DNA from: Octopus vulgaris
Lineage: Eukaryota
DNA: 64,000 nt
Direction of reading: 5' to 3'
Assembly (NCBI GenBank): GCA_951406725.2
Contig: OX597832.1
Coordinates: forward strand, 66,960,001-67,024,000
The notes beneath the pieces are model-generated. The model ran no database searches. It was not told the DNA's origin and worked only from the letters and a program-made list of their open reading frames with translations. This document shows, in pieces, positions 3,603 through 61,534 of this stretch (position 1 is the stretch's first letter; the number at the start of each line of letters is the position of its first letter). Both the position numbers and the translations under genes were made by a program.

Positions 3603-4309
3603 GCTATTTTCATCATCCTTGTGACTATGGCGAAAGAATGTATCTGGTGGACGCGTCTGAAAGGATTGGAGACAAACACTTTCCTCTCTGGTCAATCTCT
3701 CATCAATTTCTTCAAGTACCACTTGAAAAGGAAAGTGAGAGTAGAGAGGCAAGTTTTGTCTAGCGAATCTTTTAAAAAAAGATGGGTGAATGTAGCAAGG
3801 ATGGCTCGTATGAATGACGAAGCCACCTTGAGCATAATCCTATGAACCCAGAAATTGAAAACAGAGGGTTACCCACTTGCAAACAAATGTGGTAACATAT
3901 AACAATATTGACCAAGGTTACCGTGGTCTTTTTCGTAGGCTTTTCTTCCCACGGATAAACCTTACTTGCTTTCCCCTTTACACCATATATCATAACACTG
4001 TGATACACGATCCCTATTGATCGTTTTTTTCCTCTTCCCCTTTTTTTCCCATTTTTTCTTCTTTTTTCATTTCTCTTTTCTTTTGTTCCTTTTCCTTTTC
4101 CTTTTTTCTTTTTCTTTTTTTCTTTTTTATTTCATTTATTTTTTTTTTTTTTGTTCTTCTCGTCCCTTTTACGATCCTTCTTGATCGAAAACCTACGCCA
4201 CCCCCTTTGTTTTATTTTTGTTTTTTGTTTTTTTCATCCCCCAAAAGAAAAGCACTACCTTCTAACTTGTCCCATCTGTGTGCAGCCCTGTGTGGCCAAT
4301 AAAGAAACT
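3603..4309 (+). mobile_element. 5'-truncated L1/Tx1-clade LINE: ORF2 C-terminus plus 3' UTR
   Basis: Frame reads AIFIILVTMAKECIWWTR...FKYHLKRKVRVERQVLSSESFKKRW...* and matches the AK..IW..R ... F..RW pattern of Tx1/L1 ORF2 C-termini. T-rich 3' UTR with AATAAA at 4298. Embedded in (TCTA)n on both sides. Confidence 0.7.
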
Positions 4310-4358
4310 TATCTATCTATCCCTCTATCCATCCATCCATCCATCCATCCATCTATCC

Positions 4359-4402
<44 letters not shown>

Positions 4403-4415
4403 CTATCTATCTATA

Positions 4416-4446
<31 letters not shown>

Positions 4447-4587
4447 ATATCCCTCTATCTATCTTTTCATCTATCTGTCTATCTATTCATCTATCTATAT
4501 ATCCATCTATCTGGCTATCTATATTTCTATCTATCTATCCCTCTATCTATCTTTCCATCCATCTGTCTATCTATCTATCTATATCTC

Positions 4588-4655
<68 letters not shown>
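4310..4655 (+). repeat. (TCTA)n/(TCCA)n microsatellite
   Basis: Direct reading; source of the spurious ORFs 4151-4702 and 4278-4880. Confidence 0.95.
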
Positions 4656-4656
<1 letters not shown>

Positions 4657-5509
4657 ACACACATGGATTCATATTTATACACATATACCTGTTGTATTAT
4701 AGTAGGTATCTGCAATGCTTTTTTAATATTGCGGACATGTGTATTCTGAACGAATTAGAGAAGCTAATCTCATTTGAAATATTTAATTGTTCCTCACATT
4801 TCGACTCCAACGCTCAGTCAATTTCGAGTACGTCATGGCACCTGCTTCATCTTTCAAACATCATTTTGAAAATCAAATGAAATTAAACAATCGTTAGAAA
4901 GAAGTTATTTTGATAACTAAATACAAATGAATATTTAATCGCTGGCTTCAACTCAATGATTCATAAGAGATTTTATGATTATAAAAACTCGCAATACTTC
5001 ATCGAGTTTCCGCTTGCTCTTATATCATAGTCCATCAGACTTTGGTATCATTAAACAAATTGTTGTTCAAATTTCTGCATATTTAAAACCGTTACAATTC
5101 CATTATCACGCGTGATGATCTGACACTCCAGGAAAATGAAAATATCATTTATCGCCCTCTCCTACTCTTTCAACTTGCTTTCATTCTTTCTCTTACTTTT
5201 GTCTAATATTCGAATAGAGAATGTTAAGGTAATGCTTCAATATTTTCTGATTGTCATTTAATGACATCAGTCATCATTCGCGCGCGCGCGCGCACACACA
5301 CACACACGTGCGTGCGCACACACACACGTGCGTGCGCTCGCAAACTTTCACGCATAGTGAATGAGGAGGTGGCTGATAAATTCTTTAAATGTTAATGAAT
5401 TGAAAGCAAATAATTTATTCTGGCTCTTTCTTCATCTTTCACTTATGAAACCACTTACTGCCCTCAGAACGACTCGAAAGTTTGGTAGACAATAATATAT
5501 ATACATATA

Positions 5510-5547
<38 letters not shown>

Positions 5548-6050
5548 CATACATACACACATACATATATGTATGTATGTGTGTGTATGTATGTATGTAT
5601 GTATGTATGTATGTATGTATGTATGTATGTATGTATGTATGTATGAATGTATGTATCTATAGACATACGCACCAGGACGCATGTATAAATCCAACATTTT
5701 ATTAATATATTGCAGTAACGTAAGTCTCTGCCGTATGCCTCACATTCTTCGTGTAAAACACAATGATGCTTCAATTAATGTAGCTCTACCATCCTAGAAA
5801 TAATACCTTCGAGCACTACATTGTGCTCAAGGCTGGCCTCACCTAGAAAACTTATTAGATAGAGTATAATTTTTGAAAAGGGAATATAACAATTTATGTA
5901 CTAACTCAAGAACTTAGATCTCACTATTTTATTCATCTCATTCAATGTTATAAATTTTTCTCTCTTCCGTGATCACTGGTTTCACACATGCACAAACCTG
6001 AAACACATAAACGCACAAACACAAAAACACACAATCTTTTACACATATAT

Positions 6051-8894: not shown

Positions 8895-9304
8895 TCTCTT
8901 TTACTCTTTTACTTGTTTCAGTCATTTGACTGCGGCCATGCTGGAGCACCGCCTTTAGTCGAGCAACTGGACCCCGGGACTTATTCTTTTTGTAAGCCCA
9001 GTACTTATTCTATCGGTCTCTTTTTGCCGAACCGCTAAGTGACGGGGACTAAACACACCAGCATCGGTTATGAAGCAATGCTAGGGGAACAAACACAGAC
9101 ACACAAACACACACACATACATATATGTATATATACATATATACGACAGGCTTCTCTCAGTTTCCGTCTACCAAATCCACTCACAAGGCATTGGTCGGCC
9201 CGGGGCTATAGCAGAAGACACTTGCTTAAGATGCTACGCAGTGGGACTGAACCCGGAACCATGTGGTTGGTTAGCATGCTACTTACCACACAGCCACTCC
9301 TGCG

Positions 9305-9308
<4 letters not shown>
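8894..9308 (-). mobile_element. tRNA-derived SINE, full length, with internal (CA)n
   Basis: Minus-strand head ggcgcaggagtggctgtgtggtaag...ggttccgggttcagtccc and tail ...gactgaaacaagtaaaagag. Same family as 61371, 55935 and 20400. Confidence 0.85.
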
Positions 9309-18062: not shown

Positions 18063-20399
18063 GAATATTTGTAAGACATTACAAAAATTCTCCACCCGAG
18101 ATTCTTTAGTCGTATAAATGCACTCATTAGGGTGCATGCAACGACAGTTCAGCCAACACATTAACTTAACCACATATTTACAAAGGGGAAGAACTATCTT
18201 AACTCAAAAACAGTTATGCCCCTTTGTTAGTCACCGGCATGAACTGTCTTAAGAAATTTAATGAATCTCAAAGAAATAGCTTAAGTACATACATACCTGC
18301 ATATATATATACACATATGTGCGTAAATTCTAGTATAGATCGGAAAGACAAAAAATAGATGGTTACGTAGCACGGTTTTTACTTGCATCCGTTAAACTTA
18401 TGTGGTTCAACCAGTGTCAGTCAACAAAAGAAAAAATACTAATCGTTAGCATAAATGGGATTAAGGTGAAACGAACGTAATTGTGTGTCGTTGTGATTTA
18501 TTGGTTCCATTATTAGTCGATTTGTAGTTTGTGTTTTATTAAATGTTTAAAGTTTATTTGGAAATGGTAAAGACATCCTAGAGAATCTGAGAGAATGTGG
18601 TTAGATATAATATGATAATCTATCATGGCTAAATCATTTTGTATATTTACCATTTGCGCCTAAAAATAGTGTAGATTTTGACTAAAGAAACAAATGGTTA
18701 ACTGGAGGGAACTGTTAAAGTTTTCTGTGAAAATGACGGATAAGATGTGAAGTGAAAAGAACGATAAAAAATGTAAAAGAGCGGGATGTGCTTGCACATG
18801 GAATCTGTTTAATGATACAATGTAAAACAGACGGTACGAAAGACTGTTGGAGATAATTGCAGGCTTGGCTGGATTGCCTTTGCATTCGATCGATATTGCA
18901 ACATATTAAATGCGTTAATAAGGTTAATGTATCTAACAGACGAATGTTTAACACTGACTAGATTTGAAGAGAAAAATATTAAAACTACCTTATATATTAT
19001 CAGAGCAAACATTGTGTGCTAGACCATTAACTGTGATTATGAATACATGAAACTGAAGACGTAATATGCTAAATTATACAAAATAAATAAAACTAATTAT
19101 ACAAACTATATTTTTTCCTTCATTTAAAAAGATTTTCTTTGAAAAAATAGAGCAATGATTAAATCTGTATGGAACTGGTAAATTTTTGGAGCAGACAAAA
19201 AGCAAACAAAATTCTTTGGATTGAAACATGCAAAGTCATGGCGCCATTTGTGTTAATTTGATTTTAAAGAAGAGGTAATTCAGTTACTAGCCCGTTATGT
19301 AAACTATGGCGAGTTGATAAATGAAACTAATAAATTCAATATGAGAATAACTATATTCATAAAATGAAAAATTGTTGCCGATATGGTGGAAGGATAGACG
19401 AGTTAAAACTATTTAAAGATCAACAAATAACTTACACACTAAATCTTCTCAGTCAAGCAAAAGTTTTCATTTTTATATTAGTGTACATTTATAACTAAAA
19501 AGTGTGCATTCCTTTCAATATGTAAGTAGAAAAGTTATAAGCGAATACGTCAGTGATAAAAGAGTGTTTGGGAAGTTAGTGTTGCATCTAGCAATTGCCA
19601 ACGATCGGAAGATAAATAGATCTTTGACTGTTAACAATGAGTTCAATATGATTTATATAATATTTGAATGGGTACATGTAAGGGCAATTGTTAATCATAT
19701 TTAGATAATTCACCAAGATTGTTTTAATGAAACGAAACTTCAAACTACGTTCACATCCCAGAAAGTAAGGATATGACAAAGAGATCAAAATGTTAAGAAT
19801 GGAACAAAAACACCCCATAATGTAATTTATTTTAATTGTCAGTGGTTGAGGAAATACTTGGTTCCATTAGTACATTTTCTAGGACACATTTTGTTTATGT
19901 GACAACTTAATGTCAATCAAATTCAGTTACAGGCAAATATATACTTTCCAAATATAACAATCGTATAAGATATAAAACTGTACTTTCGATGTTTTAGAAA
20001 ATTCTTTAATCGGTTTGACACGTGAAAGTCCATGGGCTCTCATTTACGCAGCATTCAGGTAATGATTAAAAAATATAGAACGTAAATCGATATAATATCG
20101 TCTATTCCTCTGCTCCAGTTAAACGTGTAACTGAAAATTATATCTACTTACATATTGAAAGGAATGCACACTATGGTTAAGAGCTTATATGATGACAACG
20201 AGAATTCGGGTTTACTGTTCGACAGACATGCAAGTTCACACACATGTAAAGATAGATAAATAGATATATAAATAGATAGGTAAAGGGATGGATTGATAGT
20301 TACATATCCATGGATGGATTGATAGGTATATACATAGACAGATAGATGGAGAGATAGATAAATAGGTAGTGTCCAGAAAAACGTGAAAAAATTCTTTAG

Positions 20400-20682
20400 T
20401 TGAAGGACTAATTATATCGGTCTCTTTTGACGAACCACTAAGTTTCGTGTACGTAAACACACCAGCATTGGTTGTCAAGCGATGGCAGATTGACAAATAT
20501 ACACACACACACATACATGAATATATGCATATATATAAACACGACAGGCTTCTTTCAGTTTCTGTCTACCAAATCCACTCACAAGGCTTTGGTCGGCCCG
20601 AGGCTATAGTAGAAGACATTCTTCCAAGTTGCCACACAGTGGGACTGAATCCGTAACTATATGCCTGGGGAGCAAGCTTCTT
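20400..20682 (-). mobile_element. tRNA-derived SINE, 3' portion; its first ~40 nt are displaced to 24833-24873
   Basis: Homologous to 8894-9308. It stops at aagaagcttgct within the head. Confidence 0.85.
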
Positions 20683-22775
20683 TATTCCATCAAATTAGCC
20701 ATAAAAGCTTTACATAGATGGATGCAAATACGGGCTGGACAACAACACAAATGAAATGAATGACGAGCAAAATAATGATATTGATGAGGGAAGCAGACGA
20801 CGCCCGCAGATCGATGCTTCCCGAAAATATTGTTGTTTTTTTTTCTATTTTAGAAAAACAATTTGAGGTTATATGTGTTCAATGGAACACAAGGCACTAT
20901 CAAATGAGGCACTAAGTCTCTTATCTATTTTAAAACTCGAGACATTAAAGCCCCTTAACTCCATACCCCAATAGGCGCACTGCCTCATTCAAGCACCTGG
21001 ACGGTATCAAGTTGGGACACTTTAGCATAAAGTTAAATATATCCTCGGGGAAGGATTTCAATATCCTGTACAACTTGGTTTCCCTTATGACCACTGCAGC
21101 AACCTGCGGAGGCCAATCAGAGTCCTCATTGCAGGCCTCTTTTGTCACCTTCTTTACGCCCCACCCTTGTGGAAGAGGATTACAAATTACTCGTCTATCA
21201 CAAAGGAAGGGGCCACAGTTTCTTCAGTCGACGGCACAATTACCACCGACGGTGTTTCGGGATATGCCAAATATGTGTTAGTAATCGCCGGTAATGCCGC
21301 GTTTTACTTCTCTTGTATTTTATTTTGCCACGAGAGTGTGGAGTTCTTCCGTTTTGTCCGGAACATTTTCTTTCCCTCTCGCAGCCGTAGTATTCCTCGG
21401 TGAGCAATCATTGCCACCCACCTTCTTCCTCTTTCGGCTCTTTTCCGTCGAGGAGGTCTCTACCTTCTCGACCATCTCCCGCTCTCCCTCCGAATGAGTA
21501 GGGGGCTCTTCCTCAACTAGCAGCTCCAGAACCCTTCTCTATCTACTCGGGTTTCATTCCAAGTGACAACCCGCATAAAATTATAACAGCTGAGATACAT
21601 GACTTCTGTTTAGAATATAATCAAAATACAATTTTACATTATATACATTTTTTTCCTGTCTGTCAGAAAGAGATAAAGCACATTTTTACATCTCTATTTG
21701 CCAAGCATTTGTTTCAAATTAAAACAGTAATAGTTCTTGAAGCAATAACAGCAGGCAGTCGTTGCCATGCTAGATAAAGCAATTTAGCAAATCTCTCATT
21801 TTATCCGAAACAACTGATCGTGTTCTTCAATTTGACGAGTATTTCTATTAGAATTAAATAATAGAAGTACACATTTGATTAGGTATAGCCAACACTTTAT
21901 GGAAGCTCTGTTATGCACTAACAAGCAGGATCTCCTGAGGGGTGTCAAGTAGCAACCACACCGTTGCATACTTAGCACCCCTGGAAATAAATTTTATAGT
22001 TGGCAGATACTCAGCCAGAAAACGGCAATGGTGTCGGGCGTCTTTGAATAAGTCCTAAGCACCACCGTCCTCTCTTCTAAGTCTTTCACCCACTCATTTG
22101 GTGGGACAATCTCCAACTCCAACCCAGTGTTCGTTTTTCCTGCCATGTTTTGGAAGAAGAGTTCACACAAAAAAAGTTCAAATAGTTCAAAAAATAAAAC
22201 ACAAAAAAGGGAAAGAAGGAAGAAGGAAGAAGGAAAGAAAGCAGTCCAAAACACAGCAACTTCAACCTTCCGAATAACTGGTACTTCCGGCCAACTAGTA
22301 TAGCAACAGGAAAACAGCAACGGGAACAAAGCTTCACAAATTTCCCCAAGAAATTGATACAAAAATTGGTAAAAAAAATTTCACAATATTTGGAGGTGGA
22401 ATATACCCGCAAAATACTGCATACAATCTTCCGGCCACAGGTACTCCAGGCCAACCAAATAGTAGCAGGAACACAGCAACAGGAACACAAAACCAAAGTT
22501 CACATTTTCGTAGGTGGAATACCCCCTAAAAAACAACTTAGTTCTCACCGCTAAGTGAGATACTTATGCCCAAATGCAGGCAGATAAATGCGCGGAATTC
22601 AGTGGCGATTTCTTGCTTGAAAAGAAAAAATATACACTAAACAGCAAACTCCCACTGAATCCAAAAAAACAAAAGTCTTACCTTGCAGTTCGGCTTCACT
22701 TAGTTCGCCAGGCTGCAAACCAGGGTCACCACTTCTTTCAGTGCAAAGAAAAACACCTACAACAACGCATGCGCA
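20683..22775 (-). mobile_element. ORF1-only (HAL1-like) L1/Tx1 retroelement, copy 1, with its centre replaced
   Basis: ORF1 N-terminus MAGKTNTGLELEI...RTVVLRTYSK (ATG at 22146) and C-terminus EDSDWPPQVAAVV..LYRILKSFPED are both homologous to copy 2. 5' and 3' UTRs are also homologous to copy 2. Confidence 0.7.
21572..21856 (+). repeat. ~285-bp direct duplicate of 24966-25249
   Basis: cgcataaa.ttataacagctgagatacat...gacgagtatttctattagaatta is present at both sites. Confidence 0.9.
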
Positions 22776-22789
22776 GAAGCAAGCTTCTT

Positions 22790-24832
22790 TATTTCATTTA
22801 ATTTGCCACAAGGGCAGCACACAGGGAGAAGCTTGCGGGCTGGACACAGACATTAATGGGATGAATGATAATGATGCAAGGATGAGAAGGATGAGAGAAG
22901 ACGAAAAGCGCCCGCCGACTTTCGCTTCTCTAAAACATTGTTCTTTTTCTCCTTTTTTTCTTTTCTTTTATAAAAAACACAATGAGGCGATAAACCTCTC
23001 ACATAGTTCAGAATTCTTTTTTTCTTTTTCTTTTTGAAGCAAATGAGGCTATAAACCTCGTACATAGTTCAACTATTGGAAAAAAATCACACAAACGAGG
23101 CAAAATGCCTCTCATTTTTTTTACATTTTGTAGACTCTTTTTGAGTCCAAACGTCCAATGCTTCAAGTTTTCCGTCTCACCGGGCTCCTTGCTTCATCGA
23201 AGTATCTATTCGGTTCCTAGCCGGACCACTTGGCCATATATCTATAGGAGTCCGCTGGGAAGGAATTCATTATCCTGCACAGATCGTTATCCCATAAGAC
23301 CTCCGCAGCCACCTGCGAAGGCCACTCAAGGTCCTCCGAGCAGGACAGAAGCCCCTCCCACCGGCCCTTCCTTTCAAGTTTTTTTATTTCATTCTGCAAA
23401 GTCCCTCCCTTGTGGAAGAGGACCACAAATTCCTCCTCCTGTGGCACACCCACCGAAGGAGAATCGGGACACGCCGGCAACGTGTCACAACCCGCCGGCA
23501 ATGTCCCGTTTTTCTTTTTTATTTTCTTTTTCCCTTGGGCCGCGGGAGGGTGGTGATCCTTTGCTGTGTCCAGGAAGTCCTCCTTTTGTCCCGCAGCCCT
23601 CGGGTCCGTCGGTGGGCAACCATTGTTGCACACCTATCGCTTTCGTTTTTTTCGAGGAGGTGGAAACCTCCTCGTCGTCCTCCTCCTTCTCTTCCTACAT
23701 TGAGGGAGCAGGGAGTGATTCCTCTATTAACTGCTCCAGGATCCTATTTTGGTCCTTGGGGCAATTTTTCTTGATGTGGCCGATCTCCAGGCACAAGTGA
23801 CAGTTGGGCGGGGGCGTCCCTCGAGCATCACCGGATACCTAGACCCGGCCATCCTCAAAAAATCTGGGAAAACCAGACTTTCGGCTGATTGGGTCCATAG
23901 TGTCAAAACAGCATTTGACCCCTCCCAATCAACCGCAGCCAAAATTTTCACATTGAGCATCTTGGTACTGCTACCACCCAGACCTCGGTGGATAGAGTCC
24001 TTTATCCACTCGGGCTCAATTCCGGGTGGCAAACCGCAGACCCAAGCCCTCATTAACTTATTCCCACAATAACTGGGAACAAACATAATTTCCTTGCCCT
24101 CCAGGGGCCGGCTTGCAAATTCGGAAGCTTTTTTGGGGGGGAGTCAAATAGCAACCAGACTGTTGCATATTTGACTCCCCGTGAAATAAATTGAATGGTT
24201 GGCATGTACTCTGCCAGCTCCTTCAGAATTGTGGCTTTCGGGAAGACGGTTAAGGTATCTAGCGACTTTGAATAAGTCCTCAACACCACCGTCTTCCTTT
24301 CGAGCTCTTTTAGCCATGTTTAATAATTCCACACTCATAATTCCTTTGCCATTTTTTGTTTTAAAAAGTTCAAATACAGTTCACAATACGGTTTCAAATA
24401 AAGAAAGATACACAAAAGTAAAGAAGGAAAGACACAACAGAAGGGAAGAAAAAATAAAAATAACACTTCAATAAAGTTCTTTCTTTTTTTTAATAAATGA
24501 TAGCTGTGAAAAAGAGTTCAAATGCTGGCAAAGAAATTAATTTTCGGCCGAAAGGTACTCCAGGCCAATAATCCACAGAGAATTAAACAATTTCTCACAA
24601 TTATGTGAGAAAACACACATGTCTCCACCGCAAGGCAGACAAAAAGCTTCGAATCCAGTAAGGACTCCTTACTTGTTCAAAAAAATAAAACTTACAGGCA
24701 ACAAATCCTACTGGACTCAAAGATCCAAAAGTCTTACCTTACGGTAGAACGTCTTTCAATTCAACTTTCGTCCGCTGCACACCAGCGTGACGACTTCAAG
24801 GGCACAAAGAAGACAACTGAACAGCCGGAACC
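22790..24832 (-). mobile_element. ORF1-only (HAL1-like) L1/Tx1 retroelement, copy 2, complete but frameshifted
   Basis: ORF1 from ATG 24352 (MAKGIMSVELL..VVLRTYSK..GLPPGIEPEWI..YPVMLEGRP) has a CCHC knuckle CHLCLEIGHIKKNC at 23761-23802. There is no ORF2. The 3' terminus resembles the LINE end at 4276-4309. Confidence 0.8.
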
Positions 24833-24873
24833 GGAAGCAAACTTCTTACCATACTGCCACACCTGTGCCTATA
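24833..24873 (-). mobile_element. SINE head (5' end of the SINE continuing at 20682)
   Basis: Minus strand tataggcacaggtgtggcagtatggtaagaagtttgcttcc matches the head of 61371 and 9308. Confidence 0.8.
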
Positions 24874-26319
24874 AGTAGAACGTTTTGATTAGTGTATAAA
24901 ATAGCTTACATAAATTGTTTGCTTTACCTGATCAGATGTGTTCTTCCATGACTTTAATAAATACTCGCATAAAGTTATAACAGCTGAGATACATGGCTTT
25001 TGTATAGAATATAATCAAAATACAAATTTATACCTAAGCATTATTTTCTTGTCTATAAGAAAGATATAAAGCACATTTTTACATCTCTATTTGCCAAGCA
25101 TGTGTTTCAAATTAAAATAGTAACAGTTCTTGAAGCAATTATAGCAGACAGTCGTTGCCATGCTGGATAAAGCAATTTAGCAAATCAATCGCTTTATCCG
25201 AAACACCTGATCGTGTTCTTCTATTGGACGAGTATTTCTATTAGAATTATAACATTAATTTAACACTCTCACAGTTAGCATATTTGTGAATTGACTGACA
25301 GAAGCTGGAATGTACTTTCGCACAGAATACAGCTAAACAAGTAACTTTTAATGATCTAAAAATATATACAGTGCCAAAATGATCAATCATGCGTTTAGTA
25401 TAAAGTTTTCCATATACAGTAAAATTAAAGTACCACTTTAATAGGATTATGAGTCGGATGCGAATGATCATATTGACAACTGGATGCTATTTCGAGCTGG
25501 CTAAATGACCAAGTACAAGCACTATCGCTGGCATGATATATACGAGATAAATTCATTAAGGAGTTTGAAACAAATATCGATCATTTTTCCTATCTCATTT
25601 CAAATGTTTTACAAAATATGAGTTAAATAATTTCCAATTGCACTGATTAACATTTCAAACTCATAAAAGTTATGTCGTTATTAATATAATTGCAAGCAGG
25701 AATTTTCTATGAATTTCGTATGGTAAGATTCGACGGAGATGTTATCATGCAAAAATTTAAATTTACGGCTATCTCCATACATATATCATAATCATTAATA
25801 AAAAATATTCTTTTTATTTACACATATCATACGTATCATGTATATCTTGAAGCACATATTCCGAAGAGTATCTGCTTCAAATTAATATTAATAAAATATT
25901 TTTCTTCAAGAGATTCCACTGTTTTTTTTGTTGTTGGAGGTGGTTTTGGATTCTGGCATGGTTTTGCTAGCGCTCATGGTATTTGTGGTGGCGGTAGATT
26001 TGGTGGTTTGGCGATGGTGCCGTGGTTTGTTGTTCTGAGGGTTGTAGTTAAGATACAATGCCTGTTGTTTTACGTTGCAACTGTATCCATGTAAAACTTT
26101 TTCAAGATACATAACTTATATTTGATCCCTTCATTACTTTCATGTATACTCGTATGCACTCAAACACATCTACAGGCACACGTAACAACATATATGTGGG
26201 TGTATACCTAACTTCATGCATGAATATCTATGCTACTATGCAATTCACATCTCCGCATACACAGTCATATAACTCTACATGTGGTTGTGTATACACACAT
26301 TAGTGTCTCGCAACACGAA

Positions 26320-61370: not shown

Positions 61371-61534
61371 ATAGGCGCAGGAGTGGCTGTGTGCAAGTAG
61401 AATGCTTACCAACCACATGGTTCCGGGTTAAGTCCCACTGCGTGGCTCCTTTGGCAAGTGTCTTCTAATATAGCCTCAGGCCAAACAAAGCCTTGTGAAT
61501 GGATTTGGTAGACCGAAACTGAAAGAAGCCTGTC
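61371..61534 (+). mobile_element. tRNA-derived SINE head (family of 8894-9308)
   Basis: ataggcgcaggagtggctgtgtg...ggttccgggttaagtcccactgcgtgg...ggatttggtagaccgaaactgaaagaagcc. Confidence 0.85.

Follow-up and report, generated by a model that had tools for sequence, protein, structure and literature searches.

At this locus of Octopus vulgaris a SINE is split and two related elements lie between its parts, which raises the question whether both were inserted at one and the same place and, if so, whether they represent a family that prefers this place. An original prediction to that effect was followed up by computational analysis of the window, i.e. the whole 64-kb stretch of DNA.

The interrupted repeat is an octopus-type SINE. 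Two minus-strand elements break it after its base 22, between the motifs that resemble an A box and a B box. Its parts are the following:

24848..24869, minus strand: head of the SINE up to the insertion point, bases 1-22 (alignment to intact SINE copies)
24849..24859, minus strand: A-box-like motif of the SINE (regex)
20641..20652, minus strand: B-box-like motif of the SINE (comparison with the intact copy)
20400..20667, minus strand: remainder of the SINE (79.5% identity to 9000-9284)

Alignments to two intact copies bore out the predicted split and the parting of the two box-like motifs; the head begins at 24869 and not at 24873 as first proposed. The SINE tail (20404-20682) was 79.5% identical to the intact copy at 9000-9284 and 81% identical to that at 61395-61534, the head showed 75-76% identity to both, and the first 140 nt of the flanking tail were 85-86% identical to ordinary SINE copies. 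The A-box-like motif of the head was matched with a regex of the A-box consensus, and the B-box-like motif at 20641-20652 was missed by regex because of one change with respect to the intact SINE copy. In intact copy A the regexes matched an A-box-like motif at base 11 and a B-box-like motif at base 55, and neither matched in copy B; no tRNA match to the SINE was obtained from ARAGORN or Rfam.

A degenerate 14-mer had been reported at all three junctions, where duplications of the target site were delimited:

24833..24847, minus strand: target-site duplication, upstream copy, 15 bp (motif search; SINE origin from contig loose ends)
22776..22789, minus strand: target-site duplication, middle copy, separating the elements, 14 bp (motif search)
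20668..20682, minus strand: target-site duplication, downstream copy, 15 bp, running on into the SINE tail (motif search and alignment)

The 14-mer gave exactly three zero-mismatch matches in the 64 kb, each at a junction (20669, 22776 and 24834), with none elsewhere; when up to two mismatches were permitted, five matches were found versus 1.1 expected from shuffles. The duplication measures 15 bp in both outer copies and 14 bp in the middle one, and the three copies differ among themselves by 1-2 bases. Among the loose ends listed at 24833, 151-203 contigs in each of the four public runs pass without a break from head to SINE tail by way of the motif. The duplicated motif is SINE sequence, and the data support two insertions, one after the other, at a single site with duplication of the target. 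Both intact window copies of the SINE depart from the motif at several positions, and the target may therefore be only part of the SINE population.

The anatomy of the two elements is based on these features:

22790..24832, minus strand: element copy 2, 2,043 bp, apparently full length (alignment; multicopy by contig depth)
20683..22775, minus strand: element copy 1, 2,093 bp including a foreign patch (alignment)
21569..21856, no strand assigned: patch replacing the middle of the copy 1 ORF1 (89% identity to 24963-25249; depth ~2-3x single-copy)
24963..25249, no strand assigned: flank sequence matching the copy 1 patch (alignment)

Both are colinear and head-to-tail, with 69-81% identity by segment (aligned columns), and all five segments compared outscored 30 shuffles each, confirming two diverged ~2-kb minus-strand elements. 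The patch of ~290 bp, 89% identical to the neighbouring flank, stands in place of the second RRM and the knuckle of copy 1; its identity as a MITE was rejected, since its depth is only ~2-3x single-copy. Neither element has an LTR or terminal inverted repeat, the only match being an internal low-complexity one of 21 bp in copy 2. LTR retroelements possess long terminal repeats and a 4-6-bp duplication; with no such repeats and a duplication of 14-15 bp, the elements are not LTR retrotransposons, TRIMs or LARDs. An ORF2 (APE/RT) between ORF1 and the 3' end is absent in both local copies. From the ORF1 end to an alignable terminus copy 1 has 262 bp and copy 2 about 370-430 bp, and the longest stop-free frames in these remaining stretches were 62 and 71 aa. 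The proposed ORF1-only structure is supported, and is common to both diverged subfamilies at the locus.

The coding remnants were located with tblastn, using the homologue P0001, and with Pfam:

23163..24330, minus strand: broken ORF1 of copy 2, with two predicted RRM folds, CCHC knuckle, charged linker and short C-terminal block (tblastn with P0001, 53-56% identity)
23761..23802, minus strand: CCHC zinc knuckle of copy 2 (Pfam zf-CCHC)
20945..22146, minus strand: broken ORF1 of copy 1, ATG to stop of the last open frame, without second RRM and knuckle (tblastn with P0001, 44-80% identity in pieces)

Of the gag-like ORF1 with a CCHC knuckle predicted for copy 2, both parts were found, the knuckle below threshold (19.7 bits, E=9e-4, versus a Pfam cut-off of 20.8); both ORFs are broken, that of copy 2 by several frameshifts and in-frame stops. 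The fold predicted for P0001 (mean pLDDT 81) matches tandem-RRM proteins, and zf-CCHC was detected at E<=0.01 in 7 of the 14 homologues scanned, so that the predicted architecture is that of an RRM-RRM-CCHC nucleic-acid-binding protein. Named homologues are all octopod (Octopus, Argonauta), distant ones are very diverse (22-36% identity), and a near-length search with P0001 returned only P0001 itself. Eight pieces of the window and 15 proteins had no Pfam match to Transposase_22. For the C-terminal block, homology to the C-termini of distant homologues was not supported: a profile built from five of seven excised stretches, without P0036 and P0003, scored copy 1 at E=0.013 and copy 2 at 0.27, and found neither in the six-frame window; the hhalign score of 11.9 was surpassed by 2 of 30 shuffles; and the Atlas returned only leads under 0.9. 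Decayed ORF1s of this kind are annotated as 'uncharacterized' octopus genes, and that they pass as such is a warning for annotation.

At the element ends three short features were recorded:

24816..24832, minus strand: initial 17 nt of copy 2, similar to SINE sequence leading into the B box (15/17 with a 2-nt gap)
24733..24739, minus strand: splice-donor-like heptamer, 5' UTR of copy 2 (94 from the 5' end)
22677..22683, minus strand: splice-donor-like heptamer of copy 1, same motif (93 from the 5' end)

The SINE-like start of copy 2 scored 11, a value reached by none of 4,049 internal 20-mers (maximum 7). What had been called a LINE-type 3' end is without a poly(A) tail: no A-run of at least 8 occurs at the 3' end of either copy, and in both AATAAA straddles the junction between element and target. 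CpG enrichment was not seen in the 5' UTRs (0.70 and 0.87 versus a background of 0.90), and no common 3' stem-loop was evident in single folds of the two copies.

Further copies were sought in the four public runs, which yielded 4,080-5,953 matching contigs per run, mostly less than 95% alike. Depth over the copy 2 ORF1 was ~370-500x single-copy in run X1 and 320-380x in X8, and over the 3' half of copy 1 ~11-23x, depth not being equal to copy number; both elements are members of multicopy families. Regarding the flanks, both informative non-local contigs among the 32 pieces listed, of ~20,900, carry the target motif at the element end, and both belong to the copy-1 subfamily. One (X1 record 7, 22552-22789) is ~85% like copy 1 and runs through the motif at the 5' end, the other (X8 record 25, 20671-20916), equally ~85% alike, through that at the 3' end; each was seen as far as the motif. 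Among the matches listed, no other flank at an element end was present in non-local pieces, and the 15 joints listed, of 173, included none from an element end to a SINE; the loose ends listed were 24 of ~2,560. In the probably orthologous X8 record 29 the match ends three bases into the middle duplication, leaving 42 bases unexplained. Motif-flanked copies number two of two at the locus and two of two among informative non-local contigs listed, a small sample restricted non-locally to the copy-1 subfamily; for comparison, PMC4494074 calls an element target-specific when over 20% of its flanks are of a single type. Targeting of the SINE by the whole family, as originally envisaged, is modestly supported by the locus and these two contigs of the copy-1 subfamily.

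These data are probably best explained by a non-autonomous, site-preferring non-LTR family, of which two members likely arrived in two separate events of target-primed reverse transcription, with endonuclease and reverse transcriptase probably supplied in trans by an L1/Tx1-type partner that likely favours this SINE site. Pol II would transcribe the element from its 5' UTR, and the RRM-RRM-CCHC ORF1p would package its own RNA and recruit the partner ORF2p, a step also postulated for HeT-A, HAL1 and Ag-Sponge. The partner endonuclease may nick the T-rich strand just past the A box, a second nick 14-15 nt away giving rise to the duplication. Because there is no poly(A) tail, priming is proposed to involve either the A-rich 3' end or read-through RNA that anneals to the nicked target, a mode reported for R1Bm. 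The duplication would regenerate the target, and a second subfamily could therefore land at the identical point. The SINE is probably an abundant, harmless landing site, and separation of its A and B boxes likely silences that single copy as a by-product. No locus of an autonomous partner was confirmed in the metagenome contigs scanned with P0001 and P0051, and a weak search (alignment of 30 of 47 homologue matches) gave no long ORF1-ORF2 fusions among 4,999 candidates of 1,403-4,005 aa.

Other histories of the locus have to be weighed. One ancestral insertion into this SINE might have been amplified together with its SINE flanks, the tandem arising by recombination or template switching between two such composites and not by repeated targeting; this would likewise leave other copies flanked by the motif on both sides, the SINE-like first 17 nt of copy 2 hint at a long common history, and the same objection needed testing for SINEU-3 (PMC4494074). 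We consider it unlikely, as identity between the subfamilies is 69-81%, against 85-86% between the flanking SINE and ordinary copies, and at the tandem junction one clean duplication stands, the mark left by a double insertion (bioRxiv 10.1101/158386). Similarly unlikely is a descent of the elements, by internal deletion, from an autonomous LINE that is specific for the site and usually provided with ORF2, ORF1-only forms being a minority. The colinear structure from ORF1 to the terminus, common to two diverged subfamilies, speaks against it, as does the flat depth of copy 1 from linker to 3' UTR, a flatness that by itself is compatible with an ORF2; however, depth drops ~30-fold from the C-terminal block of copy 2 (23240-23384) to the next bin, which would also fit relatives continuing into other sequence, e.g. 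ORF2.

The L1 endonuclease prefers a T-rich consensus, and the nick context at the insertion site is T-rich on one strand. A relaxed L1-type insertion, with most copies elsewhere and this locus a hotspot, would agree with this, with the formation of tandems also by elements of weaker preference, and with the lack, among the matches listed, of any flank of a further copy-2-family member. We regard it as quite improbable, since the site was used twice at the locus and a further two contigs probably use it as well, the 3' junctions of both elements are exact and lack a tail, and a rough null with assumed inputs allows at most 0.002 same-site pairs at the SINE position genome-wide without targeting. 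Very unlikely, although the head-to-tail layout and a splice-donor-like motif and AATAAA that recall a Pol II gene speak for it, is local tandem duplication of one insertion, or retrocopying of a host RRM-CCHC gene: junction motifs 1-2 bases apart between elements far more diverged argue against local duplication, each element matches its own set of other copies, and the homologue set is very diverse.

If the site preference of this non-LTR family is family-wide, the SINE head joins the targets of site-specific retroelements, a probably Tx1-derived lineage joins the short list of ORF1-only riders (HeT-A, HAL1, Ag-Sponge), and an autonomous partner is predicted whose endonuclease, of interest for target-recognition studies, cleaves a fixed 15-bp sequence that occurs very many times. 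A stronger version, which we hold to be rather doubtful, would make this octopod ORF1-only lineage a hyperparasite specialised on the dominant SINE: its copies would almost all lie after base 22, tail-less read-through RNA would pair with the next nicked SINE so that the target helps to guide insertion, one subfamily would have captured B-box sequence at its 5' end, and each insertion would knock out a Pol III promoter in a genome with ~12% SINE.

With respect to classification, the features of an ORF1-only non-autonomous non-LTR element are present, namely an ORF1-type protein, no ORF2 in the two local copies, a duplication without LTR or terminal inverted repeat, and multicopy occurrence. 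HAL1 has a poly(A) tail; the octopus elements have none, and their ORF1 is RRM-RRM-CCHC with no Transposase_22 match, so that they are neither HAL1 nor, as had been suggested, 'half-L1' in the strict sense. The Tx1 clade is delimited by RT phylogeny and an APE endonuclease; the octopus elements contain no ORF2, and the Tx1 or L1 affiliation proposed at first is putative. An ORF1 with RRM and CCHC is a Tx1-clade feature, not exclusive to Tx1; such proteins of non-mammalian animals are consistent with this clade (PMC5203782), 56 Mb of L1-Tx1 are reported in O. vulgaris (PMC13282606), the library of the species containing 80 L1-Tx1 consensus sequences, and mobilisation by an L1/Tx1-type partner is likely.

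HeT-A (Jockey-derived), HAL1 (L1-derived) and Ag-Sponge (CR1-derived) similarly encode one ORF1 without RT and are presumed to be mobilised in trans, and in the passages of PMC5786205 and PMC5753468 on them none is described as Tx1-derived or SINE-inserting; HeT-A forms tandems at telomeres, and HAL1 derives from mammalian L1, with an ORF1 of Transposase_22 type in contrast to RRM-RRM-CCHC. Xenopus Tx1L (targeting Tx1D), Keno (U2), Dewa (tRNA-Leu spacer), Mutsu (5S), and Kibi and Koshi (microsatellites) share sequence preference and multicopy targets with the octopus family, but are autonomous with ORF2, and a SINE head is listed as target for none of them in the descriptions available. R1 likewise forms tandem arrays from double insertion, and R1Bm needs downstream target for accurate reverse transcription, but R1 is autonomous and specific for 28S rDNA (PMC7265360, 10.1101/158386). 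Dada elements have tRNA genes as insertion sites, and in several families the duplicated sequence is part of the Pol III A box, but they are DDE DNA transposons with a short duplication and target genes, not SINEs (PMC3706591).

The combination of an ORF1-only rider with a SINE-head target was not found in the literature searched (Repbase and Dfam lay outside that search). A close parallel is crocodilian Tx1-Mar with its rider SINEU-3 (PMC4494074), non-LTR elements aimed at a defined position in another transposon, with a 16-bp duplication and tandem insertions sandwiching one duplication; there the target is a Mariner DNA transposon and the non-autonomous rider is non-coding and snRNA-derived, whereas in the octopus a SINE head is targeted, by a rider that codes for ORF1. 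No major concept is changed, because transposon-targeting Tx1 elements with tandem riders are already known, and each ingredient has its precedent, in Tx1-Mar with SINEU-3, in HeT-A and HAL1, and in Dada.

The SINE was found to be split in two, with two related minus-strand elements of about 2 kb, copy 1 and copy 2, lying head to tail between its parts, as the alignment of head, tail and intact SINE copies confirmed. The features delimited by sequence comparison, together with two internal ones, are as follows.

24869-24848, minus strand: first 22 bases of the SINE
24847-24833, minus strand: motif, 15 bp, between SINE head and copy 2
24832-22790, minus strand: element copy 2
22789-22776, minus strand: motif, 14 bp, between copy 2 and copy 1
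22775-20683, minus strand: element copy 1
20682-20400, minus strand: motif continuing into the remaining SINE
about 9000-9306 and 61374-61534, strand not given: intact copies of the same SINE
21569-21856, strand not given: patch in copy 1
24733-24739 (copy 2) and 22677-22683 (copy 1), minus strand: splice-donor-like heptamer, 93-94 nt from the 5' ends

The first 140 nt of the split tail were 85-86% identical to the intact copies in the window, and the head 75-76%. The degenerate 14-mer had three exact matches in 64 kb, every one at a junction as originally observed, and five at up to two mismatches (1.1 expected); both intact SINE copies carry a variant of it, differing at several positions. 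Contigs of four public sequencing runs, with four organism labels, were compared with 20630-24950 at 80% likeness, and 151-203 contigs per run pass from SINE head through motif into SINE tail. The motif is thus the empty target, which settles that the 14-mer belongs to the SINE and not to the element. The break point lies one base past an A-box-like motif and parts it from a B-box-like motif (both scored against a box consensus), in agreement with the predicted insertion between the boxes. The tRNA derivation is putative, its basis being the box-like motifs; neither ARAGORN nor Rfam called a tRNA in the head. A perfect 30-nt inverted repeat adjoining the split SINE (19501-19530 and 20143-20172, 612 nt between arms) is possibly a non-autonomous DNA transposon.

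Both elements are colinear, with their 5' ends in register. Identity over aligned columns was 77% in the 5' UTR, 78% at the ORF start, 71% in the linker, 69% in the C-terminal block and 81% in the last 200 nt, all segments compared outscoring each of 30 shuffles. Comparison of the ends detected no LTR or terminal inverted repeat in either element; both lack a 3' poly(A) tail and terminate in AATA, immediately before the motif. Past the end of ORF1, 262 bp are left in copy 1 and about 370-430 bp in copy 2, and since two diverged subfamilies have the same ORF1-to-end structure, the loss of ORF2 was likely ancestral to both. The splice-donor-like motif is canonical and lies inside a conserved block of both 5' UTRs, an uncommon feature in a retroposed element. 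Copy 2 opens with 17 nt (24816-24832, minus strand) that match, at 15 of 17 positions and with one 2-nt gap, the SINE stretch before the B box, a score reached by no internal 20-mer (n = 4,049). Captured target could account for them, as could a longer duplication shortened by a deletion, or a chance match around an ETS-like motif.

The middle of the copy 1 ORF is lost, and in its place stand about 290 bp that share 89% identity with the flank at 24963-25249, just past the SINE head. Contig depth over this patch was about 2-3x single-copy, on which ground a transposon was rejected; the patch looks like a local, templated-repair-like copy. Contigs about 98-99% like copy 1 span its junction in runs X2 and X8, and the patch is therefore older than their split from the lineage of the window.

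A search with the longest uninterrupted reading frame in copy 2 gave one relative among 172 candidates, P0001, an 'uncharacterized protein' of O. sinensis (75% identity), which covers copies 1 and 2 in pieces by tblastn, showing a single ORF1 broken by frameshifts and stops. A search with P0001 retrieved 47 proteins (E ≤ 0.001); 12 of the 20 examined bore an organism name, in all cases Octopus or Argonauta. The AlphaFold model, built on 30 of the 47, had a mean pLDDT of 81 and two beta-alpha units; its PDB matches were tandem-RRM proteins, among them SFPQ, NONO and HuR, with E-values of about 1e-5 to 1e-4 and a low whole-chain TM, and Atlas matches were eukaryotic CCHC and ZCCHC3-like clusters (0.89-0.93). 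With its RRM and CCHC domains, the product falls under type I ORF1p in the classification quoted in the available part of PMC5203782, where RRM/CCHC ORF1s of non-mammalian animals are described as consistent with Tx1. The further homologues, P0002-P0047, are diverse octopod RRM-RRM-CCHC proteins annotated as uncharacterized genes, most of them 22-36% identical to P0001, and several sit on contigs of 1.7-2.4 kb, about element size.

Both elements are clearly multicopy. Contig depth, which is not copy number, was 22,900-24,400 (X1) and 1,770-2,100 (X8) over the copy 2 ORF1 bins (23965-24254) and 690-1,030 and 86-126 over the copy 1 bins (20775-21499), single-copy depth being 49-62 and about 5.5. 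It falls about 30-fold right after the copy 2 C-terminal block, which leaves room for relatives that continue differently. In X1 it was about 107,000 across the terminal 150 nt of copy 2 (22805-22949), about four times that of its ORF1 bins; 5'-truncated copies, a 3' tail common with a partner and low-complexity matches are candidate explanations. Among 32 listed contig pieces (20,891 more lie beyond these), three extend as far as the end of an element. Of these, two are non-local, show about 85% likeness to copy 1 and are seen up to the motif: the match extends across the entire motif at the 5' end (X1 record 7) or over 12 motif bases at the 3' end (X8 record 25). The match of X8 record 29 (22544-22778), probably orthologous, breaks off after the third base of the middle motif, although the contig continues for another 42 bases; copy 2 could be absent in that organism, or an indel present. 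No flank of another copy-2-family member occurred among the listed pieces, and no element-to-SINE joint among the 15 of 173 joints listed.

A tandem by local duplication is very unlikely, because the junction motifs differ by only 1-2 bases, whereas the elements themselves are much more diverged. Two target-primed reverse-transcription events, powered by an autonomous partner, are most likely; the duplication from the first insertion would recreate the target for the second. Double insertion is the accepted reading of tandems enclosing one duplication in the available parts of bioRxiv 10.1101/158386 and PMC4494074. Some degree of targeting is very likely, since a rough null assuming 500-5,000 copies, 10^4 to 5x10^5 SINE targets and a usable site every 100 nt puts the genome-wide number of same-site pairs at this SINE position at 0.002 or less. 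That the 3' junctions are precise and carry no tail suggests that target-like RNA served for priming, which the accessible part of PMC7265360 states for R1Bm. The likeliest partner clade is L1-Tx1, which occupies 56 Mb in 80 families in O. vulgaris, where L1 takes up 10.8 Mb and I 0.5 Mb (PMC13282606); contig scans with ORF1 homologues and a weak search for ORF1-ORF2 fusions recovered no partner. Elements that encode ORF1 alone are presumed to form multimers with proteins of their autonomous counterparts (PMC5786205, available part). Separate insertion of both elements in trans, by an L1/Tx1-type partner preferring the SINE site, is a reading we hold to be rather probable.

The nested structure is well supported as real. 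A full-text literature search, outside subscription journals and with some papers assessed by title and the opening of the abstract, found no SINE-targeting or Tx1-derived ORF1-only family, nor did the available portions of PMC8869645, PMC5035012, PMC8967140 and PMC9004415. An existing entry in Repbase, Dfam or an O. vulgaris consensus library is quite possible. The elements are probably a previously undescribed version of known site-specific, non-autonomous retroelements. As far as the consulted parts of the sources describe them, crocodilian Tx1-Mar with SINEU-3 shares the transposon as target and the formation of tandems, Dada likewise strikes a Pol III promoter region, and HeT-A, HAL1 and Ag-Sponge also encode only ORF1; the octopus elements are not HAL1 in the strict sense.
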